From NCBI RefSeq assembly GCF_002854065.1, contig NZ_CP024147.1: a stretch of DNA of 64,000 nt; one strand, 5' to 3'. The stretch comes from Escherichia coli. GTDB taxonomy: Bacteria; Pseudomonadota; Gammaproteobacteria; Enterobacterales; Enterobacteriaceae. Made by a program: the position numbers and the translations under genes. Below, piece by piece: positions 15,002 to 59,962 of this stretch. Within the stretch, counting starts at the first letter, position 1. Each line of letters begins with the position of its first letter. Below the pieces are notes generated by a model. That model did not search any database and was not told the origin of the DNA. It was given only the letters and a program-made list of their open reading frames with translations.

Positions 15002-16544
<1,543 letters not shown>

Positions 16545-16989: not shown

Positions 16990-19892
<2,903 letters not shown>

Positions 19893-19985
19893 ACAACGCC
19901 GAAGATGTTTTGGCGGATTGAGAGAAGATTTTCAGCCTGATACAGATTAAATCAGAACGCAGAAGCGGTCTGATAAAACAGAATT

Positions 19986-20105
19986 TGCCTGGCGGCCGTA
20001 GCGCGGTGGTCCCACCTGACCCCATGCCGAACTCAGAAGTGAAACGCCGTAGCGCCGATGGTAGTGTGGGGTCTCCCCATGCGAGAGTAGGGAACTGCCA
20101 GGCAT
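19986..20105 (+). rRNA. rrfH: 5S ribosomal RNA
   Basis: TGCCTGGCGGCCGTAGCGCGGTGG…GGAACTGCCAGGCAT. Confidence 0.98.
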
Positions 20106-20157
20106 CAAATTAAGCAGTAAGCCGGTCATAAAACCGGTGGTTGTAAAAGAATTCGGT

Positions 20158-20234
20158 GGAGCGGTAGTTCAGTCGGTTAGAATACCTGCCTGTCACGCAG
20201 GGGGTCGCGGGTTCGAGTCCCGTCCGTTCCGCCA
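20158..20234 (+). tRNA. aspU: tRNA-Asp (GTC anticodon), distal gene of rrnH
   Basis: GGAGCGGTAGTTCAGTCGGTTAGAATACCTGCCTGTCACGCAGGGGGTCGCGGGTTCGAGTCCCGTCCGTTCCGCCA. Confidence 0.97.
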
Positions 20235-20244
20235 CTTATTAAGA

Positions 20245-20274
20245 AGCCTCGAGTTAACGCTCGAGGTTTTTTTT
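20245..20274 (+). terminator. rrnH operon rho-independent terminator
   Basis: Perfect stem cctcgag/ctcgagg followed by T8. Confidence 0.8.
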
Positions 20275-20396
20275 CGTCTGTATATCTATTATTGCCAGAA
20301 TCGCAAAAATCCTCTGCATTTTACGCTCTTTTTCCTCAACAGTCTGAAGCCCATAATCACCTCAGTTAACGAAAATAGCATTAAAAGAGGCATATT

Positions 20397-21201
20397 ATGG
20401 CTATCCCTGCATTTGGTTTAGGTACTTTCCGTCTGAAAGACGACGTTGTTATTTCATCTGTGAAAACGGCGCTTGAACTTGGTTATCGCGCAATTGATAC
20501 CGCACAAATCTATGATAACGAAGCCGCAGTAGGTCAGGCGATTGCAGAAAGTGGCGTGCCACGTCATGAACTCTACATCACCACTAAAATCTGGATTGAA
20601 AATCTCAGCAAAGACAAATTGATCCCAAGTCTGAAAGAGAGCCTGCAAAAATTGCGTACCGATTATGTTGATCTGACGCTAATCCACTGGCCGTCACCAA
20701 ACGATGAAGTCTCTGTTGAAGAGTTTATGCAGGCGCTGCTGGAAGCCAAAAAAACAAGGGCTGACGCGTGAGATCGGTATTTCCAATTTCACGATCCCAT
20801 TGATGGAAAAGGCGATTGCTGCTGTTGGCGCTGAAAACATCGCTACTAACCAGATTGAACTCTCTCCTTATCTGCAAAACCGTAAAGTGGTTGCCTGGGC
20901 TAAACAGCACGGCATCCATATTACTTCCTATATGACGCTGGCGTATGGTAAGGCCCTGAAAGATGAGGTTATTGCTCGTATCGCAGCTAAACACAATGCG
21001 ACTCCGGCACAAGTGATTCTGGCGTGGGCTATGGGGGAAGGTTACTCAGTAATTCCTTCTTCTACTAAACGTAAAAACCTGGAAAGTAATCTTAAGGCAC
21101 AAAATTTACAGCTTGATGCCGAAGATAAAAAAGCGATCGCCGCACTGGATTGCAACGACCGCCTGGTTAGTCCGGAAGGTCTGGCTCCTGAATGGGATTA
21201 A
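20397..21201 (+). pseudogene. dkgB: 2,5-diketo-D-gluconate reductase B (aldo-keto reductase) interrupted by +1 frameshift in an A7 run (20748-20754)
   Basis: Two overlapping ORFs (20397-20771 and 20704-21201) that join into one AKR protein; total span 805 nt = 804+1; frame switches at …[17 protein letters not shown]. Confidence 0.85.
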
Positions 21202-22112
21202 GCCTCTCTGACAGCTCCTCCGGGAGCTGTTTTTACATGCTCACTAAGGAAATCGATAAAAGCCCGGATGCGCGTATTTACCGCACGGTCGCTGTAATAG
21301 ACGGCACTGAATGGCATTTCCACTGGCAACACTTTATCTGCCATTAACTCCACCAATTCTCCGCGAGCGATTTCTTTGTCGATCATGTAGTCGGACAAAC
21401 ACGCAATCCCGTTGCCACTCAGGCAAAGCTGTTTCAGTGTTTCCCCACTATTGGATGACAAACCGTACTTCACCTCATGTAATTGTCCATCGCTATAGGC
21501 TATCGGCCAGGTATTGAGGGAAGCGGGTTCAGTGAATCCCAGGCAAACATGTTGCTTTAAATCGTCGATCGTTTCTGGCTTCCCGTAGCGGGAAATATAA
21601 TCGGGGGAGGCGATAATTTTTCGATAACTGTTAAATAACGGCCTGGCACGTAAGCTGGAATCCGTTAACGTACCGGCGCGTATCGCGACATCCACTTTTC
21701 TTTCGATCAAATTAATAATCGTTTCGGAGGAGACTAGCGATAAAGTGACTTCCGGATAGCGTTCACGGAAAGGCTTAATTAACGGCATCAGAAAGTGCAG
21801 CACCACTGGAGTTGCGGCATCGATCCGTAACAGTCCACGCGGTGTATTACGCGTCTCCATAATTTCTGATTCTGCCGCTGCCATCTCCTGCAAAATTGAC
21901 TGTACGCGACGAAAATAACGCTCGCCTTCTTCCGTCAGGCTAAGTTGTCGCGTGGTCCGATTAAGCAGGCTAACGCCAAGTTTCATCTCCAGCTTTTTCA
22001 CCGCCCGGCTTACCGCTGAGTTTGCTTGCCCTAATTGTTCCGCTGCCCGGCTAAAGCTGCCGCTTTCTACGACCGAAACAAAAATGGCGAGTTCTTCCGA
22101 CGTGGCTTTCAT
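21198..22112 (-). CDS. yafC: LysR-family transcriptional regulator YafC
   Basis: 304-aa ORF with N-terminal HTH (…[23 protein letters not shown]…). Confidence 0.9.
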
Positions 22113-22301
22113 TTTTGCTCCTGTTGCAAAATAGAAGAGATATTTTGAATTTATTTGTCATTAAACCATCAGGATGCGTGATATGTCATCCGATTTAATG
22201 TTCTCAATAATGAGCAAAATTCTGACCGGTGTAAGCACTTGCTTACATAACAATATACAATTGCTCGTTGAAAGAGTGAGCTAAAATCCCTATAACAGTA
22301 G

Positions 22302-23153
<852 letters not shown>

Positions 23154-23230
23154 GGTATGTCAGGTCTGCCACAGGGCAGACCAACGTTTGGCGCTGTCCT
23201 TTTATACTCAAATAACAAAAGGACAGCGCA

Positions 23231-24001
23231 ATGACAATACAATCCCACCATGACCATGTAGAAAAGCAGTTTAGCTCTCAAGCCAGCGAATATCTGACCA
23301 GTACCGTACATGCATCCGGACGAGATTTACAGCGCCTGGCGGTGCGTCTGGCTGATTATCCTGATGCAAGTGTACTTGATATGGGCTGCGGAGCAGGGCA
23401 TGCCAGCTTTGTCGCTGCGCAAAACGTGAGCACGGTGGTGGCGTATGACTTATCTGCCCAAATGCTGGATGTCGTGGCACAAGCTGCCGAAGTCCGGCAA
23501 CTGAAAAATATCACCACCCGCCAGGGTTATGCCGAAAGTCTGCCATTTGCCGATAACGCATTTGATATTGTTATCAGCCGTTATTCTGCCCATCACTGGC
23601 ATGATGTTGGTGCAGCATTGCGTGAAGTGAACCGGATATTGAAACCTGGCGGTAGGCTGATTGTGATGGACGTAATGTCTCCGGGGCACCCAGTGCGCGA
23701 CATCTGGTTACAGACGGTAGAAGCATTACGCGATACCTCTCACGTACGAAACTACGCCAGCGGTGAGTGGTTGACGTTAATCAATGAAGCCAATCTGATA
23801 GTTGATCATTTAATCACGGATAAGTTACCGCTGGAATTTTCTTCATGGGTCGCGAGAATGCGTACGCCAGAAGCGTTAGTAGACGCTATTCGCATTTACC
23901 AACAGAGCGCATCGACAGAGGTGAAAACGTATTTTGCTTTGCAGAATGATGGCTCTTTCACCAGTGATATCATCATGGTAGAAGCACATAAATCGGCATA
24001 A
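23231..24001 (+). CDS. yafE: SAM-dependent methyltransferase YafE
   Basis: 256-aa ORF with SAM-binding motif LDMGCGAGH. Confidence 0.85.
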   Translation: MTIQSHHDHVEKQFSSQASEYLTSTVHASGRDLQRLAVRLADYPDASVLDMGCGAGHASFVAAQNVSTVVAYDLSAQMLDVVAQAAEVRQLKNITTRQGYAESLPFADNAFDIVISRYSAHHWHDVGAALREVNRILKPGGRLIVMDVMSPGHPVRDIWLQTVEALRDTSHVRNYASGEWLTLINEANLIVDHLITDKLPLEFSSWVARMRTPEALVDAIRIYQQSASTEVKTYFALQNDGSFTSDIIMVEAHKSA

Positions 24002-24004
24002 ATG

Positions 24005-24037
24005 AAAAAGGCACCGGGGGAATCGGTGCCTTTCTAT
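24005..24037. terminator. bidirectional rho-independent terminator between yafE and mltD
   Basis: aaaaaggcaccgggggaatcggtgcctttctatt hairpin. Confidence 0.65.
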
Positions 24038-24048
24038 TATCTGGTTTG

Positions 24049-25407
24049 TCAGGAGTCTGGCATGCTGTTGTTTTTCACAAACAACGTCAGCTTATCGCCT
24101 GGTTGCAGATTCGCAGTATCGCTGTTCCAGCGCATCACATCTTTGATGTTCACGCCGTGGCGTTTAGCAATGCTTGAAAGCGAATCGCCTTTGCGCACAC
24201 GATACGTAATGCTATCGCTGTTGTTTGCCAGTCGCTGTGCGCTACTGCCTGCACCAATCGTCAAACTTTGGCCTGTCTTCAGCTTAGATCCGCGCAGTTT
24301 GTTCCACTGCTGCAAATCTTTGGTGCTTACGCCGAGACGTGAAGCGATGCTTGAAAGCGTGTCGCCAGAGCGTACGGTGTAAACACGGCTGTTAAGCGGC
24401 GTATTGTCGGCAACCAGCGTCGACTGTACAGCAGCAATTTCGCCTGAAGCCAGAGATTCACGCAGTTGATCTGCATGCTTCTTTGGCACCATCACGTACT
24501 GCGGACCACTTGCGCCCAGCGTGGAGCCTTTCACGCCAGCGTTGAATGTCTTCAGCTTGCTGACGGAAATCCCCGCCATATCTGCAACCTTCGCCATTTC
24601 AACCGGGCTGCTCAGGTGCACACGCGCCAGAGCACGGCTTTCATCGGTCGTTGGCAGACGTACGCCATAACGCTTGCTGTTTTTGAGAATATCACTCAAT
24701 GCCAGCATTTTAGGCACGTACTGCTTCGTTTCCTGCGGCAACGGTAACGACCAGAAGTCCGTGGATTTCCCACGCGCTTTGTTCGTTTTAATTGCCTTCA
24801 TGACCCGACCTTCGCCGCTGTTATAAGCCGCTACGGTCAGAAGCCAGTCGCCGTCAAACATTTTGTTCAGACGCTGCATCATGTTCAGCGCGGCAGTTGT
24901 TGAAGCAACAACATCGCGACGCGCGTCATAATTGCGGGTCTGTTTCAAACCATAATTGCGCCCCGTGCTCGGAATGATCTGCCAGATGCCTGCGGCATTG
25001 GCACCAGACGTTGCGTGAGGATCAAAAGCGCTCTCCACTATGGGTAGTAGTACCAGTTCCATAGGCATGTTACGTTTTTTAACTTGCCCGGCTATCCAGT
25101 ACATATACGGCTCTGCCCGTAAAGTTACATCGTGGAGATAGCTCTTATTGCGTAAATATTTCTGTTTCTGTTCGCGAATCCGGTCATTTTCCGGAATTCC
25201 CATCTTTAGCTCGTCGCCAATGAAAGCCCACAAGTCACCATCTGGCGCGATAGACGTCCCATCGTCCATCCATCGTGCCTGACTTGTAAACTTTGCTGCT
25301 TCCCCTTGACCAGCTGCAGAAAGGCTCTGTGCGTGCTGTTGTACGTTGCCGGTACTCTGGCAACCCACGAGCAGGACAGAGGCGAGTAATATCGCTTTTG
25401 CCTTCAT
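24049..25407 (-). CDS. mltD: membrane-bound lytic murein transglycosylase D (LysM repeats)
   Basis: 452-aa ORF with lipoprotein signal (LLVGCQS), SLT domain and C-terminal LysM repeats. Confidence 0.93.
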   Translation of the reverse strand: MKAKAILLASVLLVGCQSTGNVQQHAQSLSAAGQGEAAKFTSQARWMDDGTSIAPDGDLWAFIGDELKMGIPENDRIREQKQKYLRNKSYLHDVTLRAEPYMYWIAGQVKKRNMPMELVLLPIVESAFDPHATSGANAAGIWQIIPSTGRNYGLKQTRNYDARRDVVASTTAALNMMQRLNKMFDGDWLLTVAAYNSGEGRVMKAIKTNKARGKSTDFWSLPLPQETKQYVPKMLALSDILKNSKRYGVRLPTTDESRALARVHLSSPVEMAKVADMAGISVSKLKTFNAGVKGSTLGASGPQYVMVPKKHADQLRESLASGEIAAVQSTLVADNTPLNSRVYTVRSGDTLSSIASRLGVSTKDLQQWNKLRGSKLKTGQSLTIGAGSSAQRLANNSDSITYRVRKGDSLSSIAKRHGVNIKDVMRWNSDTANLQPGDKLTLFVKNNSMPDS

Positions 25408-25478
25408 GTGTGTGTCAATAGTTGCTTAAAAGACGACCGATCATAACGGCGAACGGAGCCGATGACAAGAAAGTTTTA

Positions 25479-26237
<759 letters not shown>

Positions 26238-26264
26238 TTACCTCTCAGTGTAAAACGGAAGGTT

Positions 26265-26990
26265 GTGATGAAACCGGCAAGAGTCCCTCAAACTGTCGTG
26301 GCTCCTGATTGCTGGGGCGATTTGCCCTGGGGAGAGCTTTATCGCAAGGCGCTGGAGCGCCAGCTCAACCCGTGGTTCACTAAAATGTATGGTTTTCATC
26401 TGCTTAAGATTGGCAATTTAAGCGCAGAAATCAATTGCGAAGCGTGCGCGGTTTCTCATCAAGTGAATGTTTCTGCTCAAGGAATGCCCGTCCAGGTGCA
26501 GGCGGATCCACTTCATCTTCCTTTTGCCGATAAATCCGTTGATGTTTGTCTACTGGCACATACATTGCCGTGGTGCACCGATCCGCATCGTTTATTGCGT
26601 GAAGCCGATCGGGTATTGATTGATGATGGCTGGCTGGTGATTAGTGGCTTCAATCCCATTAGTTTAATGGGATTACGCAAACTTGTGCCGGTATTGCGCA
26701 AAACCTCGCCCTATAACAGCCGGATGTTTACTCTGATGCGGCAACTGGACTGGCTCTCTTTGTTGAATTTTGAAGTGCTGCACGCCAGCCGTTTCCATGT
26801 TCTCCCGTGGAACAAACACGGAGGAAAACTTTTGAATGCGCATATTCCTGCGCTTGGTTGCTTACAACTTATTGTTGCCCGGAAACGGACTATTCCTTTA
26901 ACGCTAAATCCGATGAAACAGAGTAAAAACAAGCCACGAATTCGCCAGGCGGTTGGAGCCACCCGGCAATGTCGTAAACCACAGGCTTAA
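26265..26990 (+). CDS. yafS: putative SAM-dependent methyltransferase YafS
   Basis: 241-aa ORF, conserved synteny. Confidence 0.85.
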
Positions 26991-27454
26991 ACTTCGACTT
27001 GGTAGCCCGTATCTTCCAGTGTGGGATTCATCGCCGCGGCACGAGCCAGTTCATCACAGCGTTCGTTTTCCGGGTGTCCGGCATGGCCTTTAACCCATTC
27101 CCATTTGATTTGATGCTGCCCCAGCGCAGCATCAAGACGTTGCCAGAGATCGACATTTTTAACTGGTTTTTTGTCTGCTGTTTTCCAGCCACGTTTTTTC
27201 CAGTTATGGATCCACTGGGTGATACCCTGGCGGACATACTGGCTGTCGGTACTCAAAATGACTTCGCAATGTTCTTTTAACGCCTCCAGCGCGACAATAG
27301 CGGCCATCAACTCCATGCGGTTGTTGGTGGTGCGGGTGTAGCCAGCGCTAAAGGTTTTCTCGCGTCCGCGATAGCGTAAAATAGCGCCATAACCCCCAGG
27401 TCCAGGATTGCCCAGACACGAACCATCGGTGAAAATTTCTACCTGTTTAAGCAT
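26987..27454 (-). CDS. rnhA: ribonuclease HI
   Basis: [26 protein letters not shown]… 155 aa; the ORF-track entry is extended upstream. Confidence 0.95.
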
Positions 27455-27518
27455 CTCTGGTAGACTTCCTGTAATTGAATCGAACTGTAAAACGACAAGT
27501 CTGACATAAATGACCGCT

Positions 27519-28250
27519 ATGAGCACTGCAATTACACGCCAGATCGTTCTCGATACCGAAACCACCGGTATGAACCAGATTGGTGCGCACTATGAAGGCC
27601 ACAAGATCATTGAGATTGGTGCCGTTGAAGTGGTGAACCGTCGCCTGACGGGCAATAACTTCCATGTTTATCTCAAACCCGATCGGCTGGTGGATCCTGA
27701 AGCCTTTGGCGTACATGGTATTGCCGATGAATTTTTGCTCGATAAGCCCACGTTTGCCGAAGTAGCCGATGAGTTCATGGACTATATCCGCGGCGCGGAG
27801 TTGGTGATCCATAACGCAGCGTTCGATATCGGCTTTATGGACTACGAGTTCTCGTTGCTCAAGCGCGATATTCCGAAGACTAATACCTTCTGTAAGGTCA
27901 CCGATAGCCTTGCGGTGGCGAGGAAAATGTTTCCCGGTAAACGCAACAGCCTCGATGCGTTATGTGCCCGCTACGAAATAGATAACAGTAAACGAACGCT
28001 GCACGGGGCATTACTCGATGCCCAGATCCTTGCGGAAGTTTATCTGGCGATGACCGGTGGTCAAACGTCGATGGCTTTTGCGATGGAAGGAGAGACACAG
28101 CAGCAACAAGGTGAAGCAACAATTCAGCGCATTGTACGTCAGGCAAGTAAGTTACGCGTTGTTTTTGCGACAGATGAAGAGCTTGCAGCACATGAAGCCC
28201 GTCTCGATCTGGTGCAGAAGAAAGGCGGAAGCTGCCTCTGGCGGGCATAA
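27519..28250 (+). CDS. dnaQ: DNA polymerase III epsilon subunit (3'-5' proofreading exonuclease)
   Basis: [18 protein letters not shown]… DEDD exonuclease motifs; divergent from rnhA. Confidence 0.95.
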
Positions 28251-28382
28251 ATACATGTAAAAGGCGTTAAAAATAGCGACTTGGGCGATTTTTGCAGCAA
28301 ACGATTCAAAAGATGAGAAAAACCGTTGACGAAGGTCGAGGCAATCCGTAATATTCGCCTCGTTCCCAACGGAACACAACGC

Positions 28383-28459
28383 GGAGCGGTAGTTCAGTCG
28401 GTTAGAATACCTGCCTGTCACGCAGGGGGTCGCGGGTTCGAGTCCCGTCCGTTCCGCCA
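28383..28459 (+). tRNA. aspV: tRNA-Asp (GTC); integration site of the downstream island
   Basis: Identical 77-nt sequence to aspU at 20158-20234. Confidence 0.97.
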
Positions 28460-28467
28460 ATATTCAG

Positions 28468-28505
28468 AAAGCCCGAATCAGTAATGATTCGGGCTTTCGT
28501 CGTTT
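28468..28505 (+). terminator. terminator hairpin after aspV
   Basis: aaagcccgaatcagtaatgattcgggcttt followed by T-rich tract. Confidence 0.7.
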
Positions 28506-28590
28506 TGGTGAAGTGAGAATTTTTCACTCCGGAAGTAAAACGGATATGATTTAAAAAATGGCCAGACATTATAAATTCTGGCCACTTCTG

Positions 28591-29637
28591 TTACTCCAGC
28601 GCATCCCATTTCTCCAGCAGTTCTACTGGAATTTCATTTATTACCTCCGAGAAGCGTTTTCCGACCAGGCGTTCTGCCTGGCGCAGCAAAGGAATGGACG
28701 GGCTGCTCGGTTCGCTGTGCTCAAACCAGCGACGGATAACACGCAGGCGTTCCAGCGCGTCGTTCCGGTCGCGGATTTGCCGGGGTTCTGCGCCGGTCAT
28801 CGGTGATATTTCCTCCGAGATACGCACCGGTAGCGCAATCTGCTCTGCCTGCATCTGTTCAGTATGATCGATGGTGGCGTTCTCCGGCTGTTCAGCCTGT
28901 GGTTGTGGCAGGATCTCCGGCGTGGTGCTCTGCACTGCTCCCGGCAACAGGGCTAGCAGTTGCGTCAGACGGGAGAAGTCCGGTGCCTGGTCATTCAGCG
29001 TTTCACGCGCATGGCGTTGCAGCCGCTCAGTGGTCTCTGCTGCCTGGCGAAAGGCATCCAGCGGCAGTGTGCCGCGCGCTTCCAGGTCTGCCAGTTGCTG
29101 GCGTACCGATTCTGGTGCCAGCGCATCCGCCGGACGTAATGCAGATAGCGAACGCTCCACATCCCGTACCTGAAGGCGCATGGCAGCATTATTTGACAGT
29201 GTAATGCCACGAATATCCGCCATTACGCCTTCGTGGTCCAGCAACGCCGCCAGCGCGTTACTGCGTGCCACCGCAGCATCTTCGGCGGTGATATCTTCAG
29301 TCGCGAGCAGTTGAGGATGGATGGCGTCCGGGTACGTGGCGCACAACGTTTCCAGCAGCGTGAGCGTCTCCGCCAGTCCCCTGGCACCGGCCTGCTGGAT
29401 ACGGCAGCGCAGCAGGACAACCAGAATGCGGATATCTTTGCTGCGCATCAGCAGACGATGGGCGTCCCGCTCAAGCTCCGCCCAGTTAATGTTTTCAGGC
29501 GTACTGACAAAATCGCCATATTGCGCTTCTTCACGCGGTGCGGCGCGGGTGAACAGCAGCAGGTATTCCGGATCGTACTCCAGATCCGGGCCGCAGGGGC
29601 ATTCCGCCGAAATTGGGTCAGACAGGAATATTTCCAT
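28591..29637 (-). CDS. tssA: T6SS ImpA-N-domain protein (TssA-like)
   Basis: 348-aa ORF; N-terminus …ISAECPCGPDLEYDPEYLLL… resembles the ImpA_N signature. Confidence 0.7.
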   Translation of the reverse strand: MEIFLSDPISAECPCGPDLEYDPEYLLLFTRAAPREEAQYGDFVSTPENINWAELERDAHRLLMRSKDIRILVVLLRCRIQQAGARGLAETLTLLETLCATYPDAIHPQLLATEDITAEDAAVARSNALAALLDHEGVMADIRGITLSNNAAMRLQVRDVERSLSALRPADALAPESVRQQLADLEARGTLPLDAFRQAAETTERLQRHARETLNDQAPDFSRLTQLLALLPGAVQSTTPEILPQPQAEQPENATIDHTEQMQAEQIALPVRISEEISPMTGAEPRQIRDRNDALERLRVIRRWFEHSEPSSPSIPLLRQAERLVGKRFSEVINEIPVELLEKWDALE

Positions 29638-29647
29638 TTAATTATCC

Positions 29648-30676
29648 TCAGTGCGCCAGGTAGTGTTCTGGTTCGAAAATCATGCCCGTCACCGGGTTGT
29701 CGTGCATGGCTTTACCCGCCCATGCGGTCCAACCCAGTTGGTACGGACCACCGGTAACAGCCGGAGGGGCGGCGTGGGGCTTTAGCTGTAGCTCAATTTC
29801 CCAGCAGTATTCAAAACCACTAAAGGCGCGGACCAGTTCGGTCAGGACAGGCAGGTTATTGCCGCCAGGCAGAAAACGTCGGTAATCCTCCAGCGTCAGC
29901 GGGCCGATAACCAGCCGGAACTTATACTGCATGTCCGGCACGGCCTGGCCGATAAGTGCACCATTGCCAATAACGGAAGAGGGGGCAGGCATCCCCAGCC
30001 GGGTTATCTCATCGTCCGCCACGGCTATCCAGTGCAGCACATACTCTTGTATCCGGAAAGGTACACCGAAATAGTGCGCCAGCGTGGTGGCCAGACCGTC
30101 CGGATTGCGGGACTCACGCACCAGATGGGCCGATGCCGCCAGACGAGCGTGAGCCGGCAACGGGCTGTCGGCACTCTCCCGCAAATCCTGCCCGCTGAGG
30201 CTGGCGACATAAAAGGCAAAGCGGTCATGTTGCGGTTTATCCAGACCGCCCCCGGCGGACTGGGCGCTGCGCCATGCCTGGTAAAACTGCGTCAGCCAGC
30301 GGTGATGAAAAAGATCAGAAAAACGGGTTAGCGTCGGGTCTCTTCGGCTTTCAGTCCGGTTGCGCGCCAGTTCGCTGTAGTGCAGCGGCAGTGGACCGTT
30401 CGGCCCCCACAGCCCGAGACTGTACAAACTGATGTGCAAGCGCTCTTCCTGCCAGCTCACACTGGCGATTTCCCGTGGCGCAAAGGTTAGCGCGGGCGTT
30501 TGTCCGAGGCGAAATTTTTCTATCCGTGGTTGCCAGGTGTTGCCCGCCGGAACGCTACACAACTGCACATCAACGCGGCGCATCAGGTTCAGAAAACCGT
30601 AACGCCAGGGGGTTTCCTGCGCCTGAGTGAAATCGTTGCTCATACGCTTCCCCGCTGTCCCGCCCTGACAGGCCAA
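29648..30676 (-). CDS. tssG: T6SS baseplate protein TssG
   Basis: 342-aa ORF immediately downstream of and overlapping the tssF-like ORF; size and operon position fit TssG. Confidence 0.7.
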   Translation of the reverse strand: MACQGGTAGKRMSNDFTQAQETPWRYGFLNLMRRVDVQLCSVPAGNTWQPRIEKFRLGQTPALTFAPREIASVSWQEERLHISLYSLGLWGPNGPLPLHYSELARNRTESRRDPTLTRFSDLFHHRWLTQFYQAWRSAQSAGGGLDKPQHDRFAFYVASLSGQDLRESADSPLPAHARLAASAHLVRESRNPDGLATTLAHYFGVPFRIQEYVLHWIAVADDEITRLGMPAPSSVIGNGALIGQAVPDMQYKFRLVIGPLTLEDYRRFLPGGNNLPVLTELVRAFSGFEYCWEIELQLKPHAAPPAVTGGPYQLGWTAWAGKAMHDNPVTGMIFEPEHYLAH

Positions 30677-32538: not shown

Positions 32539-33033
32539 TTAAAAAAACGTAATGCGGCTCTGCTCCATATCCAGCGCGCTACGTACCCGGAATGCAGTCG
32601 GATACGGCTGCGTGAGGATCTCGCCGCGAATTTCAAACTGTAATGTGTTATGGCCACTCTGGCGGCGCTCATCCTGAAGTGGGATGATTTGCAGGGTGGA
32701 CGCTTTCAGCCGGGGTTCAAACCGGGTGATGGTTCGCAAAATGGCCCTGCGGATATCGTCCCACTTGTGCTCATACAGAAAGCTGCCCGCCAGTGGCGGC
32801 AGGCCGTAGTTAAGTACGGATGCTGCCGCGTACGGATAACGTGCAGCATCAATATCATCTTCATGGCTGACGGTGTTGAGCAGAAATGACAAATCCCGGC
32901 GGATGATCTCCTTAAGCTGAACCGGGCTGACGCTGATACCGTGGTCGCGTTTCTGGTTTGGGGCGTCGTCACACAGGCGGTCAAACAGCGTGGGCAGCAG
33001 GTGATTGCCTGGACGCTGGCGGGAAGCGCTCAC
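32539..33033 (-). CDS. tssE: T6SS baseplate protein TssE (gp25-like)
   Basis: 164-aa ORF …LFDRLCDD… with GTG start overlapping the upstream stop (GTGA). Confidence 0.7.
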   Translation of the reverse strand: MSASRQRPGNHLLPTLFDRLCDDAPNQKRDHGISVSPVQLKEIIRRDLSFLLNTVSHEDDIDAARYPYAAASVLNYGLPPLAGSFLYEHKWDDIRRAILRTITRFEPRLKASTLQIIPLQDERRQSGHNTLQFEIRGEILTQPYPTAFRVRSALDMEQSRITFF

Positions 33034-33860
33034 GCGTCGCTTCCTTCAGCGGTGTTAAAGGTACAGGTGGACAAATCCAGCAGGCTGATATCGCCGTGAC
33101 CGGTGAGCCACACCCTCTGACCCAGCGCCTGTACCAGTGTCTCTCCCGGACCGTCCTGCCAGACTGTTTCCCGGCACAGACGCAGGGAGTCGGCAGCCTT
33201 TTCAGAGCCGCTGTAGCGGGGAAACAGCTAGGCACTGTGTGTATCGCCATTGTTCAGGGTGACGTTGACGGGTTTCCAGATCAAATCGATCAGATGCGCA
33301 GGCTGCGGCGATTTCAGCGAACAGATTTGTGAAAACGGCAGCCAGATATATGCTCCGCCCGCGATCAGTTCGAGTACCGGACCGGTACGGGAGTCGCTGT
33401 CGCTAATCCAGTCAAATGCGCCGCCATTCCACTGCCCGGAAGTGTCTGTTATGGCCTCAAGCGCGCGGCTGCGGTGGGTGTCAGCTTCCTGCGCTTCACC
33501 ACGGGCGTTACAGGCGAGGGCGGTCAGCAGATCCTCCATCCAGGCGGGCGGCGGGAGAATAACACCGGGTCGCTGTTCGCCCTGAAAGCAGACGTGGCGG
33601 TATATCTCACAGCGGATCAGCTCGCCAAATACCTGCGCTTCGCGGGTATAATTTGCGTCCATCCGGGCGCATAGCTGGATCTGTTGCAGTGCCCGCGACC
33701 AGTCGCCTGCCACGCAAAATAACTGAAACAGGCTGTGGCGGCTGGAGGCCTGCGCTGGGTGCATCCTGACCTGCAGCTCTGCCATCTGAATGCCCTCCGC
33801 CAGGGAATAATCCCGCAGCAGTGCCGACAAGGTAGTCGGTAGCTTGTTAATGTTTGTCAT
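33030..33860 (-). pseudogene. tagJ: T6SS accessory protein TagJ/ImpE (SciE)-like, interrupted by an in-frame amber codon at 33228-33230
   Basis: 210-aa ORF stops at TAG; the same frame continues about 65 codons to a TGA that overlaps the tssE start, giving about 275 aa in total. Confidence 0.55.
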
Positions 33861-34761
33861 GAGATATCTCTCCGTGTTGTGCCGGGTTTATCCGGTAATG
33901 GCTGTCAATGCCAATGATGCGATGCTCTTTCCGTGTCAGATCGGGCAGTACGGTGCTATGCGCTGTTTCCGGGGCGTATTCCGGGGAAAGTAAATGCAGG
34001 ATATCAGGGGGAGTCTTTTCGACAGGCCAGGCTGTTTCACCTTCGCCGGTGGCATCCAGTACATTGAGAATAGCGTCAATGCTTAACCCGCCAGTGACCA
34101 TATCCTGCAATGTCTCGGCTTCGGTGACCAGGTCACGCAATGAATCCAGATCCTGCGAGGTGGGCTCTTCGTTAAAGGGAAAAGGATCAGCATGGCGATG
34201 AAGATCTTGTTCGGGAGATAACAACGCCTCGCGGTATTCCTGATAAAGTCGGGTCAGGGCATTCCCTTTTTCCGCACCTTCTCCGGTGGAGGAGGCTCCA
34301 TGAACAGGAATGATATCGAATGGATTTTGTGATGTCAGATGCTGCTGCCTGAACCAATCCAGATCCAGATATTCGGTTATTGCTTCCGACGTGATGGCAG
34401 TCTGCGATATCGTTTTTACTGCGCTCAGGTCCGGAGATGATGGATTGCCATGTACAAGGCACCATGAAGATAACCCCCATTCTATCAGGTCGCCTTCATT
34501 CAGACGCATACGGTGATGAGGTTCCACAATCTGGTCGTTTACCGTACAGCAATATTCGGTAGACTGATTGATAATCCACCATGCTTCTTCGTGGCGGGTC
34601 AGAGTGAGGGCAATCTTTACATCATCATTCACCTTAAAAACAGGAATCCAGGGAGAGGTAACGGTGAAGATAATTTGTGTTCCTTCAGTCGCGTAAATTG
34701 TGTTATCGGCGATCCCGTGCGCCTGTATTTTTTGGAGTCCCCACGTAATATTTGGTTTCAT
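33847..34761 (-). CDS. tagH: T6SS-associated FHA-domain protein (TagH/Fha-like)
   Basis: 304-aa ORF; N-terminal region fits an FHA-like pattern (…WWIINQSTEYCCTVNDQIV…LNEGDLIEWG…); first gene of the minus-strand T6SS block. Confidence 0.5.
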   Translation of the reverse strand: MKPNITWGLQKIQAHGIADNTIYATEGTQIIFTVTSPWIPVFKVNDDVKIALTLTRHEEAWWIINQSTEYCCTVNDQIVEPHHRMRLNEGDLIEWGLSSWCLVHGNPSSPDLSAVKTISQTAITSEAITEYLDLDWFRQQHLTSQNPFDIIPVHGASSTGEGAEKGNALTRLYQEYREALLSPEQDLHRHADPFPFNEEPTSQDLDSLRDLVTEAETLQDMVTGGLSIDAILNVLDATGEGETAWPVEKTPPDILHLLSPEYAPETAHSTVLPDLTRKEHRIIGIDSHYRINPAQHGEISHDKH

Positions 34762-35208
34762 TGTGTATCACTGTGTAGAGTGTTTCTTTCAAAAGAATAA
34801 GTTTTCTAAATTTTTAGATAAGCAATGCTGATCAATTTACTTTATCAATATAAGTTTTCGCGGAAATATATAGTGGTGATTTTTAATTTAATATATTCAT
34901 GGTGTGTATGAAATTGACTTGCTCTATTGAATATCACCATGAAAAAGATACTACCTGCTATATTACATAGTGTTCTGTGATATGCATCATTGTTTCATTC
35001 TGCCTTTTTGATAATTCTATTAATTAGAAGTTTTAATCGGTACAGTTATGTTTATGTATCATTTATATGTTATTACATCATTAGGTGTAACAGATGGACA
35101 CTCCTGTTTCGCGCAGTGCACTATATGGAAAGCTAACCAAATCTTTGTTTAGATCTTTGGAATCTGCGACAACGTTCTGTAAATTACGTGCTAACCCTTA
35201 TGTCGAAC
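34762..35208. promoter_or_regulatory. AT-rich intergenic region upstream of the minus-strand T6SS operon (former divergent promoter region)
   Basis: About 450 bp of strongly AT-rich non-coding sequence between tagH start and IS2. Confidence 0.45.
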
Positions 35209-35219
35209 TGGATTTGCCC

Positions 35220-36125
35220 CTATATTTCCAGACATCTGTTATCACTTAACCCATTACAAGCCCGCTGCCGCAGATATTCCCGTGGCGAGCGATAACCCAG
35301 CGCACTATGCGGATGCCATTCGTTATAATGCTCGAACGCCTCTGCAAGGTTCTTTGCTGCCGTTAACCCGTCTGGTTTGGGCATGATACTGATGTAGTCA
35401 CGCTTTATCGTTTTCACGAAGCTCTCTGCTATTCCGTTACTCTCCGGACTCCGCACCGCCGTGTTCTTCGGTTCAAGTCCCAACATCCGGGCGAACTGGC
35501 GTGTTTCATTAGCCCGGTAGCATGAACCATTATCCGTCAGCCACTCCACTGGAGACGACGGAAGATCGTTGCCGAAGCGGCGTTCCACCGCTCCCAGCAT
35601 GACGTCCTGTACTGTTTCACTGTTGAAGCCGCCGGTAGTGACCGCCCAGTGCAGTGCCTCACGATCACAGCAGTCCAGCGCGAACGTGACACGCAGTCTC
35701 TCTCCGTTATCACAGCAGAACTCGAACCCGTCAGAGCACCATCGCTGATTGCTTTCTTTCACGGCCACTCTGCCTGTATGTGCCCGTTTCGATGGCGGTA
35801 CAGCAGGTTTTCGCTCAAGCAACAGCGCATTCTGGCGCATGATCCGGTAAACACGTTTGGCATTGATCGCAGGCATACCATCAAGTTCTGCCTGTCTGCG
35901 AAGCAGCGCCCATACCCGACGATAACCATACGTGGGCAGCTCTCCGATAACATGGTGTATACGGAGAAGCACATCCGTATCATCAGTGTGACGACTGCGG
36001 CGGCCATCCATCCAGTCATCGGTTCGTCTGAGAATGACGTGCAACTGCGCACGCGACACCCGGAGACAACGGCTGACTAAGCTTACTCCCCATCCCCGGG
36101 CAATAAGGGCGCGTGCGCTATCCAC
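35220..36125 (-). CDS. insD: IS2 transposase OrfB (InsD)
   Basis: 301-aa DDE transposase ORF inside IS2. Confidence 0.92.
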
Positions 36126-36448
36126 TTTTTTGCCCGTCCATATTCAACGGCTTCTTTGAGGAGTTCATTTTCCATCGTTTTCTTGCCGAGCAGGCGCTGG
36201 AGTTCTTTAATCTGCTTCATGGCGGCAGCAAGTTCAGAGGCAGGAACAACCTGTTCTCCGGCGGCGACAGCAGTAAGACTTCCTTCCTGGTATTGCTTAC
36301 GCCAGAGAAATAACTGGCTGGCTGCTACACCATGTTGCCGGGCAACGAGGGAGACCGTCATCCCCGGTTCAAAGCTCTGCTGAACAATTGCGATCTTTTC
36401 CTGTGTGGTACGCCGTCTGCGTTTCTCCGGCCCTAAGACATCAATCAT
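36083..36448 (-). CDS. insC: IS2 OrfA (InsC) HTH regulator
   Basis: [25 protein letters not shown]… inside IS2. Confidence 0.9.
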
Positions 36449-36539
36449 CTGTTCTCCAATGACTAGTCTAAAAACTAGTATTAAGACTATCACTTATTTA
36501 AGTGATATTGGTTGTCTGGAGATTCAGGGGGCCAGTCTA

Positions 36540-39390
36540 CGAACTGACGCATTGGTTGCATCAGTTAATACAACAACCAGAGAATGACATTCACAATGTG
36601 CTTCGACATTATCAAATAACATCTGCTGATGTTGAGAAGGCGTTAATTCAGCAATTGAATATATTGCCTGCCGGAGCGAGTGTAATTAACGATTTTTCCC
36701 ATCATATCGATCTTTCTGTTGAAAAAGCCTGGATGTTGGCAAGTATCCGCTTTGGCGATCAAAAAATTCGTAGTGGATGGTTATTACTTGCCTGGTTAAC
36801 CACGCCAGAATTGTGTCGGGTGTTAAAAAATATTTGTGCGCCATTGGCAGAGCTACCGGTAGATGAACTATTAGATATTCTTCCGTCTTTAATCACTTCA
36901 TCTCCTGAATTAACAGAAATGCCTTATGACGGCTCGGATTTAAATTCTGCAGTACCGGGGGAAGCTAGCCAGGTCTTTGCCGGCGAATCAACTGGAAGCA
37001 AATCCGCGCTGGCGAAATACTGTCAGGACATGACTGCGCTGGCCCGTGAAGGCAATATCGATCCGGTCACCGGTCGCGAACACGAGATCCGTACTATGAC
37101 GGATATTCTGCTGCGCCGTCGCCAGAACAACCCGCTACTGACCGGCGAAGCGGGAGTCGGGAAAACGGCAGTGGTGGAAGGATTCGCGCTGGCGATTGCC
37201 GGGGGGGAAGTACCGCCTTCACTGCGTAACGTGCGGTTGCTTTCACTGGATGTTGGCGCGCTGCTGGCTGGGGCGTCCATGAAGGGTGAGTTTGAATCTC
37301 GCCTGAAAGCGTTGCTGGAAGAGGCCGCGCACTCGCCGCAGCCGGTAATCCTTTTTGTTGATGAAGTTCACACGCTGGTGGGCGCTGGTGGGCGCTGGTG
37401 GTACATCCGGCACCGTCGCATCACGGGCAGTGTGCAGTCCTGGCAGTATACGCCGCGCGGGCTGCTGGCGCTCCATACGGATGAAGAGAAACGGGAGACG
37501 CGCTGGCAGTACACCCCGGAAGGGCTGGTTGCCAGTCTGAGCAACGGCAATGGGGCTCAGTACCGGTTCAGCTACGACGGCGACGGACGGCTGACGGGAG
37601 AACAGCGCCCGGACGGTCTGATACGGATGTTTGCGCTGAATGCGGGCGGGTTCCCGGTCATCATCCAGACGCAGGGCACAGAAGGAGGGATGCGTAATGA
37701 GCGACAGGAGCGTGATGCGCTGGGCCGCCTGCTGCGCAGTGACACGCAGCACAGTACACGGACCTTCAGCTACAACCGTCTTGACCAGATAACGGAAGTG
37801 ACGCTCACCCCCACGGAAGAAGGGGAACGGCTGCACCACATGCAGGCGGACAGGGTGCGCTTTGCGTATGACCGCAGCGGCTGGCTGACGGCAGAGCACA
37901 GCGTGCACGGCAGCATAAAGTACCGGCGCGATGCGCTGGGCAATCCCACCGATATCACCTTACCGGACGGGCAGCATCTCAGCCATCTTTACTACGGCAG
38001 CGGGCATCTGCTCCAGACGGCACTGGACGGTATCACGGTCAGCGAATATGAGCGTGACAGTCTGCACCGTCAGGTGATACGCACGCAGGGGAAACTGGCG
38101 ACGTTCAGCGGCTACAACGCCGACAACCGGTTAAGCTGGCAGCGCAGCCTGCCAGGTGGCAGCCAGAATCCACAGCAGGCCGGTACTCCCCCGGCGCAGA
38201 ACGACAGCGTGACGGCGCGGGACTATATCTGGAACGCAGACGGTGAAGTCGGCGGCATCAATGACAAACTGCGCGGTTGCCTGGTGTTCAGCTATGACCG
38301 CAGCGGCTGGCTGACCAGCCGCACGGGGCAGATGTATGACCATGACCATTATTATTACGATAAAGCGGGCAACCTGCTGACGGATGAGTATCAGGGAGCG
38401 GTGCTGGACAACCGCCTGCCGGGCTACGGGCGTGACCGTTACCGCTATAACGAATGGGGCGAACTGACAGAGCGCAGGGACCAGCAGCTGGAGTGGAACG
38501 CGCAGGGCCAGTTAACGCGGGTCATCAGCAGCAACAGCGAGACGCGGTATCAGTACGATGCGCTGGGCAGGCGCATCATCAAGGCGACCAGCAATCTCCA
38601 TACCGACCGGGGAGAACGAAGCCGGACAACGTTTGTGTGGGAAGGGTTCCGGCTGTTGCAGGAGACAACGTGGCAGGGAAAGCGGACATACCTGTACGAC
38701 GCGGAACAGCCGTACACGCCGGTGGCGGCCATCACCGGGCGCGGAGAGAGTCAAAAAATCTGGTATTACCATACGGACCTGACGGGCACGGTACAGGAGG
38801 TGACCGCGCCGGACGGGACGCTGGTGTGGGCGGGCTACCAGGCGGGATTTGGTGAAAACCGGGGCGACATCAGCAACAGCGGGGCGTACTTTGAACAGCC
38901 GCTGCGGCTGCCGGGGCAGTATTATGATGAAGAGACGGGGCTGCACTATAATCTGTTCAGATATTATGCGCCGGAGTGCGGGAGGTTCATAAGTCAGGAT
39001 CCGATAGGGCTGGCGGGTGGAATAAACCTCTATGCTTATGCTCCTAACCCAATTAGCTGGATCGATCCCTTTGGACTGGATTTACACCATATAATACAGC
39101 AAGAAATTTGGAAGGAGTTCAAAACAGATCTTAAAAAAGTCACCGGATATGTACAAAATGTCACGAAAAAGGCAGCCGACATGACAAACCTAATCGATCT
39201 GGATAAACCTTTTCATGGTAATCACCCAGCTTATAGTCAATATGTAAGAGAAGCAATCGAAGACCTGAAGGCTAATAATAACTTAACGTTGAAAGGATTA
39301 AGAGATTTACAAGATGATCTTAAAAAGAAAATAGGTGAAGCTCAAAAGTCTGGCAAAAATCTAAATGATTATTTTAAATCGGGGTGCTGA
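36540..39390 (+). CDS. chimeric ORF: 5'-truncated ClpV/TssH N-domain and AAA+ D1 Walker A region fused in frame to an Rhs YD-repeat core with a C-terminal toxin domain
   Basis: Residues …[13 protein letters not shown]…[13 protein letters not shown] are ClpV-like, then YD-repeat sequence (…[13 protein letters not shown]…), then the DPFGL junction and a roughly 110-aa C-terminal tip; no native start codon, as the track start lies inside the IS2 inverted repeat. Confidence 0.75.
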
Positions 39391-39845
39391 TTATGAGATA
39401 CAAAAAGGTAACTGTTTCTTATGAGCCTGCAATCACAGGAAATAGTAAAGGAGGGTATTCAGTAGAAATAAAAGATAGACTCTCTTTTAATAGTCCTACG
39501 GAGAGAAAATACTTTGAGTCTTTTTTTGAAAATAATGATGAAAACTATAATAGAGTTTTTATCAATAATTTTGAAACTATTGATACAGTTTATCTAAAAA
39601 ATTTAATTTTATTTCCAAAACAAAAAAGGATAAAGGAAATTGATATGCTAATATTTTCCCCGCACAAACTCGGACTTAGTTTTATGATATCGGAGAAATT
39701 ATATAATATTATAACTAAATTTAAACTTCCTCCGTTCAATAAGATACCAGCTCAAATCAATACATTCAATACGAAGTATTTTTTGATCGGTTTCCCAATG
39801 ATACCAAAAGAAAGAATTGATTTAGATAAATCTATATTTTTTTGA
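39384..39845 (+). CDS. putative Rhs immunity protein (cognate to the toxin tip at 39060-39390)
   Basis: 153-aa AT-rich ORF whose ATG overlaps the rhs stop (ATGA); typical toxin/immunity arrangement. Confidence 0.6.
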
Positions 39846-41038
39846 TACAAAAAAAAGAAGTGAATTTAATTTCAAATCATATGATGAATTCATCAAAATG
39901 GATTACTCTATTATACCTAAAAAAATATACCCAGATGTATTTTATGATGTCGATGTTATCGGTTTTCAGGGCAAAGGGCTATTTTTTTCTGACAGACTGC
40001 TTGATGCAATACAAAATGCCGGGATTGTAGGGTTGCATATCGGTGACACGGAAATGGAAATGAATCCGTAGATTGATACAGGAACTTTCACTTTTAAAGG
40101 GATCTTTGGTGTCTGCGATTTTATCTTTCTGTTGGTTATTTAGCAATCCGGGAACGATATTAATCCGCTGAAGATCCTGATTTATCTACGGGGTAAATGC
40201 CCGAAATATAGAAGGTTTTATATTGGATCATATGAAAGGGGATCTTAACCTTGAAAATGCCATCAGGAAAGATGGTGGATTTTATCATAGTTATAATGAA
40301 AATAATCTTGCAGAGGGACGAAAATATTTAAGCACGGAAGAAATTAGCAAAATCCTCGAAAAGGGTAGTGTAACTGATGTTGATAGTAAAGGGCACTTTA
40401 AAGCAGGAGGATGTTGAATGAATAGTATAATAAATAAAAATATAAAAAAATAGATATGATTACTAAGGGTATTAAAAAATATCCTCTTGGAGAGGACAAG
40501 CAAGAGATCTCAAAATTAATTTGCGATTTTGAAAAAATGCCACGTAAAGAATGTAGTGTGTTTTATGGTGTTTTTTTTAATGATAGTGAACTAGTAGATA
40601 AATTAATTAAGATTGCAAGATTTTATGAGGGTGATGATAAAATAACCATAAACGTAATATCCTCTTTGGGAAATATGTTCGTGCGATACAAAATATATCC
40701 ATCAGAAGAATTATATAATCTTTTTTTTCAACTTGAAAAGTAAGAGGAAAGTTAATTATTATGTTTCTTTGTTCATTTTTAGATTTCCTCAATTTAGGAA
40801 TTATAAATTTAAATGGGACTATATTTTATCTATTCCAGATATTTCACCAAAAGATAAATCAAAAAGAAACTTTTACTCTATAGTCAATAATATCGTTTTG
40901 TCGGGAGAAACGATCCCTGTTGAGTATAAAAATAGAGTTATTAGCTTGCTGGAAATGTTTAGTAAGGGAAATATGGGAAGCGTGTATAATGATGAATATA
41001 TAGATTTAATTAATAGGCTAGTTAAGCAACACGGCTAA
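39846..41038 (+). other. AT-rich array of degenerate orphan toxin-tip and immunity ORFs (39898-40071, 40223-40417, 40456-40743, 40733-41038)
   Basis: Short ORFs in shifting frames, homopolymer A/T runs at frame breaks, and a degenerate Rhs junction-like sequence near 40160-40195. Confidence 0.45.
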
Positions 41039-41322
41039 GTCGGAACGTAATAATCTCGGTGAATATTGGTTTTTATTCTCCCGGATCTCCGCCAGTACTA
41101 ACAGGCGAAAATCCGGGAGGACTGATATTACGGCTGGATAATATCGTCAATAAACACCACACCATCAGTAGTACGCAACCAGCGCGGCGCTTTCAGTTTT
41201 GCCGCAAAGAACCAGATCAGTTCACAAAGCAGCCCCGTCAGGGGTTGTTCCATTTTAGATCCCTGCGCCTGTTCCGTCAGGATCTGGAGTAATACCTCGC
41301 AATATTCACACAATTGTAGTGG

Positions 41323-42735
<1,413 letters not shown>

Positions 42736-58534: not shown

Positions 58535-59818
<1,284 letters not shown>

Positions 59819-59962
59819 CCACTACATAACCTGAATCTGAGGCAGCACCTGGCACGGCTGGGACGGAAGTCGCTGTCGTTCTCAAAATCGGTGGAGCTGC
59901 ATGACAAAGTCATCGGGCATTATCTGAACATAAAACACTATCAATAAGTTGGAGTCATTACC

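Follow-up and report, generated by a model that had tools for sequence, protein, structure and literature searches.

Frameshifts such as those in ilvG and rph-1 of K-12 are examples of ordinary pseudogenes, specific to a strain or a lineage. In enterobacteria, the ordinary homopolymer pseudogene combines a single-base indel with a non-essential gene, is clonally fixed, and is labeled “frameshifted” by PGAP. Homopolymers that serve other ends tend to be longer: typical phase-variation tracts exceed six or seven adenines, productive transcriptional slippage usually takes place on runs of 9 nt or longer, and transcriptional slippage at poly(A) tracts reportedly rescues genes in endosymbionts (a result ascribed to Tamas et al. 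in 2008). E. coli itself can bypass frameshifting indels in homonucleotide repeats of 3–8 nt to yield functional protein, the bypassed repeats including 8A ±1 and runs of no more than 4–5 nt; the same study gives the tract length for transcriptional slippage as “usually >=10” (Rockah-Shmuel et al, 2013; PMC3812077).

The gene considered here, dkgB, lies in a stretch of 64,000 nt of Escherichia coli DNA (contig NZ_CP024147.1 of RefSeq assembly GCF_002854065.1; hereafter, the window). Its intact counterpart, encoding DkgB (YafB) in K-12 MG1655, has the same synteny, and the K-12 allele (MG1655 228,997–229,800) and the window DNA are 99.3% identical, with 6 SNPs between them. Relative to intact DkgB, the window has an extra A at codons 118–120, leaving only 119 native residues. 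Set against the ordinary homopolymer pseudogenes of enterobacteria, which it resembles in all four respects given above, the allele shows no difference of substance; what can be documented in this case is that the allele extends throughout a lineage and probably arose a second time.

Comparison with systems in which a shifted frame is put to use gives a different picture. As in the alleles studied by Rockah-Shmuel et al, the lesion is a ±1 indel in a repeat, from which slippage would restore the wild-type protein. The slippage rescue systems, however, have strong-slippage tracts of 9–10 nt or longer, whereas the dkgB run is 7 nt, unconserved and without sign of selection; it is not the long conserved run of a transcriptional slippage site. 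Read-through of dkgB would need a +1 shift, as in programmed frameshifting of the prfB type, but the gene lacks the in-frame stop or hungry codon, the upstream Shine–Dalgarno stimulator and the conserved arrangement of that system; neither the conservation nor the stimulatory elements of a programmed +1 site are found. Tract-length polymorphism among relatives or in the population, the mark of a phase-variable gene, is likewise absent at dkgB. The titles and abstracts of literature on dkgB and frameshifting held nothing relevant to the A7 allele.

The A7 insertion and its consequences for DkgB

The start codon of dkgB, an ATG at 20397, is preceded by an AGAGG Shine–Dalgarno sequence, and the frame that it opens is interrupted at a run of seven adenines. 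The features of the locus are as follows (window coordinates).

20158–20234, plus strand: tRNA-Asp (aspU position), at the end of the upstream rRNA operon
20247–20266: hairpin CCTCGAG-N6-CTCGAGG, 3′ of tRNA-Asp and followed by T8 at 20267–20274 (read from the sequence)
20397–21201, plus strand: dkgB pseudogene, 805 nt; 2,5-didehydrogluconate/methylglyoxal reductase B, an aldo-keto reductase
20397–20771, plus strand: truncated frame of 124 aa, comprising native residues 1–119, the out-of-frame residues TRADA and a premature TGA at 20769–20771
20748–20754, plus strand: A7 homopolymer, where the extra nucleotide was inserted; the A6 of the ancestor corresponds to Lys118, Lys119 and the first base of Gln120
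20755–21201, plus strand: leftover DkgB coding sequence for residues 120–267, now in the +1 frame and detached from the start codon
21127–21132, plus strand: second A6 run of dkgB, unaltered in the window
21198–22112, minus strand: yafC (LysR-type regulator), intact, 304 aa, convergent with dkgB, the stop codons overlapping

The original prediction placed dkgB downstream of rrnH and held that the A7 run splits it into two overlapping ORFs, in a locus of 805 rather than 804 nt. The sequence and the list of ORFs agree with the split: past the A7 tract, the +1 frame contains ORFs at 20704–21201 (165 aa, reaching the normal stop) and from an ATG at 20803 (132 aa), with no Shine–Dalgarno-like motif visible in the sequence upstream of ATG 20704 or ATG 20803. 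The length difference is borne out by the next-best E. coli complete genomes and strain XH990, in which dkgB measures 804 nt, and deletion of one A in silico gives a continuous ORF of 804 nt and 267 aa. The 20748–20754 tract and the 21127–21132 run are the only homopolymers of this length in the gene, and its longest. The placement also proves correct, with 16S, tRNA-Ile, tRNA-Ala, 23S, 5S and tRNA-Asp upstream of dkgB in that order, both here and in a collinear sister genome, CUWW06; the resulting gene order is that of K-12 (rrnH-aspU-dkgB-yafC), the conserved position for DkgB. Neither in the window nor in the A7 loci fetched is a gene adjoining dkgB disrupted. A scan for promoters and terminators around dkgB gave nothing useful.

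NF008377, the NCBIfam equivalog profile for DkgB, has a curated cut-off of 327 bits, which the repaired 267-aa product exceeds with 534 bits over positions 1–267 of 267. Both fragments fall below the cut-off, the 124-aa product at 238 bits and the 132-aa fragment from ATG 20803 at 246 bits (profile positions 136–267). Judged by its sequence, the locus is the dkgB gene by descent and not the DkgB protein as encoded. The N-terminal fragment retains the motifs DTAQIY (D34, Y39), TTK (K64) and HWP (H97), conserved in an alignment to PDB 3up8, which we take to be the Asp-Tyr-Lys-His catalytic tetrad of the aldo-keto reductases. No single polypeptide carries the complete (α/β)8 barrel, residues 120–267 being out of frame, and because the 124-aa product lacks these residues (over half of the barrel, most NADPH contacts and the C-terminal cofactor-binding segments) it should be inactive.

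Among members of the A7 lineage dkgB is identical, and by the translated sequence the gene is without decay since the insertion, because the repaired protein is identical to a common intact DkgB (P0001, on more than 1000 contigs). Such absence of decay fits what would be a young lineage, with a flank divergence of 0.01–0.04%.

Tract lengths in independent assemblies

Of the E. coli complete genomes in RefSeq, CUWW06 (NZ_CP182139.1; wastewater, Thailand) alone matches all 805 nt, and its dkgB is labeled a “frameshifted” pseudogene by PGAP; in the literature searched, the strain comes up solely in connection with its plasmid. The window and CUWW06 are collinear and 99.94% identical over window positions 1–33842, and have different structures beyond, among them an Rhs-containing, AT-rich block, deletions and other IS positions; because the structure differs beyond 33.8 kb, we treat CUWW06 as a sister strain and as an independent observation of the A7 allele, its annotation being applied only to window positions below 33.8 kb. 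RefSeq holds no very close complete genome across the whole window, the best structural matches being XJ34 and XJ6-3 at 99.0%.

At least 63 public contigs encode the exact 124-aa product (P0016), which is indexed in 144 blocks of a public protein collection; among its entries in GenBank are proteins of E. coli 1-250-04_S3_C1. A7 stands in all eight of the loci fetched that encode this product, three of them from human gut metagenome assemblies and five from isolate assemblies. Seven independently produced assemblies share the 805-nt allele without a single difference: CUWW06, L004, L006, L007, L009, L010, and L011. The last five (three isolates, two human gut metagenomes) are 99.96–99.99% identical to the window over 10.6–13.8 kb with 0 gaps. 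L004, an NCTC assembly, is 99.94% identical to the window with six extra 1-nt insertions, none of them inside dkgB and five of the six lengthening a run of the same base; we gave it little weight as support.

These comparisons bear on the choice that the original prediction had posed, between a genuine slippage inactivation and a homopolymer sequencing error, and for which it had suggested comparison with other dkgB alleles of E. coli: elsewhere the tract is A6, and in near-identical strains A7 recurs unchanged. Were A7 an error of sequencing or assembly, the true genome would have A6 and an intact dkgB, and errors of ±1 at this tract do happen in public data (the A5 “alleles” described below); outside the tract, there are the L004 insertions and an mltD frameshift in contig L005. 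Against such an error stand the seven assemblies that share A7, five of them without any other indel relative to the window in 10–14 kb, the single indel that separates the window from CUWW06 in 33.8 kb (situated in the 23S–5S spacer), and the intact neighbor genes of the window. Since the identical A7 is found in many independent assemblies of near-identical strains, an error is not credible, and we rate it as improbable in the extreme; the inactivation is supported, the sequencing error effectively excluded by seven independent assemblies, and on the sequences compared dkgB A7 is a real mutation, fixed across the lineage.

Two further A7 loci have more distant flanks. Contig L005 (ADJG01000004.1) has A7 in dkgB with flanks ~2% divergent and a T6-to-T5 frameshift in mltD (window 25075); on account of the latter, it was left out as an independent origin. 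In L008, from gut metagenome ERZ28588267 (window 20063–30616), A7 is accompanied by 1 SNP in dkgB and by flanks 0.3–0.4% divergent, and the contig departs from the window at ~23130–23230, between genes on the downstream side of yafD; this locus may have branched off early within the A7 lineage or may be recombinant.

Shortening of the tract has a different character. An A5 tract yields a 121-aa product ending in EAKNKG, found for three backgrounds on 69, 16, and 10 contigs (P0046, on 69 contigs, P0048 and P0059). The P0046 loci that we read come mostly from single-contig assemblies with 3–18 gaps relative to the window per ~3 kb (two gaps in each count being the A7-to-A5 difference itself) and with yafC and yafD fragmented; an A5 metagenome contig, L021, has 129 gaps relative to the window. 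We had considered the A5 truncations as evidence of a natural hotspot operating in both directions and rejected this for the P0046 loci read, whose assemblies are full of other indels. In these loci A5 looks like an artefact, with the signature of uncorrected long-read data, and such homopolymer-deletion artefacts appear to be spreading into protein databases as a 121-aa “DkgB” (L013–L022). P0024 and P0026–P0028, examined as possible frameshift members, proved uninformative: the in-frame KKQGLTR is present, and they are apparently partial sequences at contig edges.

Comparison of the window with CUWW06 also yielded observations away from dkgB. Most differences in the shared 33.8 kb lie inside the rRNA operon (15475–16039 and 18433–19918, covering 16S, 23S, and the 23S–5S spacer), with 9 changes in a 16S patch at 16003–16039; their location suggests operon heterogeneity, gene conversion or an assembly choice between copies. 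Between dinJ and yafQ, an IS1 is present in CUWW06 and absent from the window. Downstream of aspV, the type VI secretion cluster (33000–42600) is decayed: a TagJ-like ORF is shortened (33228–33860; “internal stop” in the CUWW06 annotation), TagK is intact (33847–34761), an IS2 lies at about 35220–36493, and a chimeric ORF of 962 aa (36502–39390) has ~300 aa of a TssH/ClpV N-terminus fused to Rhs core and tail sequence. The stretch at 39100–41000 has 24–34% GC, is rich in A/T runs of 7–8 nt and contains small ORFs that lack annotation. The block 33843–41310 is missing from CUWW06 (L003, L012), and copies of IS3 are located at 41311–42573 and 58566–59826 of the window.

Frequency and recurrence of the allele

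Tract length in the species was typed with 72–74-nt queries that differ in tract length only, run against RefSeq complete genomes. Genomes with identical flanks number 3574 for A6, one for A7 (CUWW06) and none for A5; no other of the 5,162 RefSeq complete genomes that match the 74-nt tract region has A7. A 78-nt query returned the same single genome, and none of its listed scores pointed to an A7 allele one or two mismatches away. The gene itself was matched in 5418 of 5426 complete genomes, the match covering at least 80% of its length in 5319. The RefSeq complete genomes did not yield an exact DNA match to the A6 parent haplotype, the nearest being 2 SNPs away. Other alterations of dkgB were seen in CE0026a (NZ_CP119003.1), where an IS1 insertion splits the gene, and in GF130 (NZ_CP172140.1), which has an allele of 803 nt.

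A7 is also found on a second haplotype (L025, L026, and L028–L032, including Logan assemblies of sequencing runs), which differs from the window at six sites flanking the tract (20464, 20787, 20799, 20811, 20829, and 21171) and shows no other gap in 3–3.6 kb. With A6, this haplotype is 100% identical to the dkgB of K-12 MG1655 and very common. Because A7 stands on two dkgB haplotypes, the allele probably arose at least twice, independently. A further and more divergent A7 product is P0060. Such recurrence is as mutation bias predicts, and is to be expected because the tract is one of the gene's two longest homopolymers; each repeat nucleotide added raises indel frequency about 2.5-fold (PMC3812077). 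In one assembly, L027 (GCA_017942545.1), A7 is accompanied by a register shift from 21133, right after the second A6 run; the shift points to a second 1-nt indel, and could reflect a mutator background, or else an assembly prone to errors.

Origin of the allele and its significance

The comparisons above make it very probable that a redundant reductase has lost its function through replication slippage, and that the loss is fixed in the lineage. Strand slippage during DNA replication would have added one A to the A6 tract of dkgB in the lineage ancestor, and the insertion would since have become fixed. Translation from the normal start would pass Lys119, read five wrong codons (TRADA) and stop at the TGA at 20769–20771. 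The loss would be tolerated, and may well be neutral, given overlapping NADPH-dependent aldehyde reductases (DkgA, YqhD, YeaE, YghZ, and others).

One challenge to a complete loss of function is that dkgB might be leaky or recoded, slippage by RNA polymerase (A7 to A6) or by tRNA-Lys (+1) maintaining a physiologically useful level of DkgB. Either slip on AAA-AAA-A would restore exactly the wild-type KKQ, the downstream coding sequence shows no decay, and the repeats bypassed to functional protein in E. coli (PMC3812077) span this tract length. The frameshift is nevertheless absent from 3574 of the 3575 complete genomes with identical flanks, the 0-frame A-site codon that follows the Lys codons is ACA (neither a stop nor an obvious hungry codon), no Shine–Dalgarno-like stimulator is visible upstream of the tract, the downstream RNA (86 nt) folds no better than its shuffles (z = −1.2), and the young age of the lineage (0.01–0.04% divergence) explains the absence of decay equally well; we hold useful leaky expression to be highly unlikely. 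The proposal that A7 is an attenuated allele, in which slippage gives low but useful DkgB and the tract, hit independently in at least two lineages, acts as a recurrent, potentially reversible dimmer of the reductase in natural E. coli populations, we regard as quite unlikely. Reversible A6/A7 switching, which would make dkgB a phase-variable contingency locus, might be suspected from the occurrence of +A on at least two dkgB haplotypes (and perhaps also on L005 and P0060); it is scarcely conceivable given that A7 is present in every near-identical relative checked (L004, L006, L007, L009–L011, and CUWW06), set against the species-wide tally of A6 3574, A7 1 and A5 0.

Whether the null allele drifted to fixation or was positively selected in the lineage is a separate matter. 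In favor of adaptive loss, the gene is otherwise near-universal, yet the null persists in a lineage sampled from human gut metagenomes, culture collections and wastewater, and a second background bears the identical insertion. Mutation bias alone, however, predicts that recurrence, and null alleles are very rare overall; positive selection appears unlikely by this sequence comparison.

The biological weight of the finding is small, one redundant NADPH-dependent aldehyde reductase having been lost in one E. coli lineage. dkgB A7 is an ordinary pseudogene and already known, being flagged by PGAP in the sister genome and its product having been in GenBank for years; what is added here is a resolution of the question of real mutation or error, and evidence that the mutation probably arose a second time. 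For annotation, the dkgB frameshift should be kept as a pseudogene and not “corrected”. The contrast at one tract is instructive in this respect: in clean assemblies, A7 reflects a true mutation, whereas A5 in indel-ridden ones looks artefactual. As a marker, the A7 allele identifies a lineage known from wastewater, from collected isolates and from human gut metagenomes; if leaky expression were true, it would also offer a naturally occurring case in which to study the bypass of frameshifts at short A-runs.
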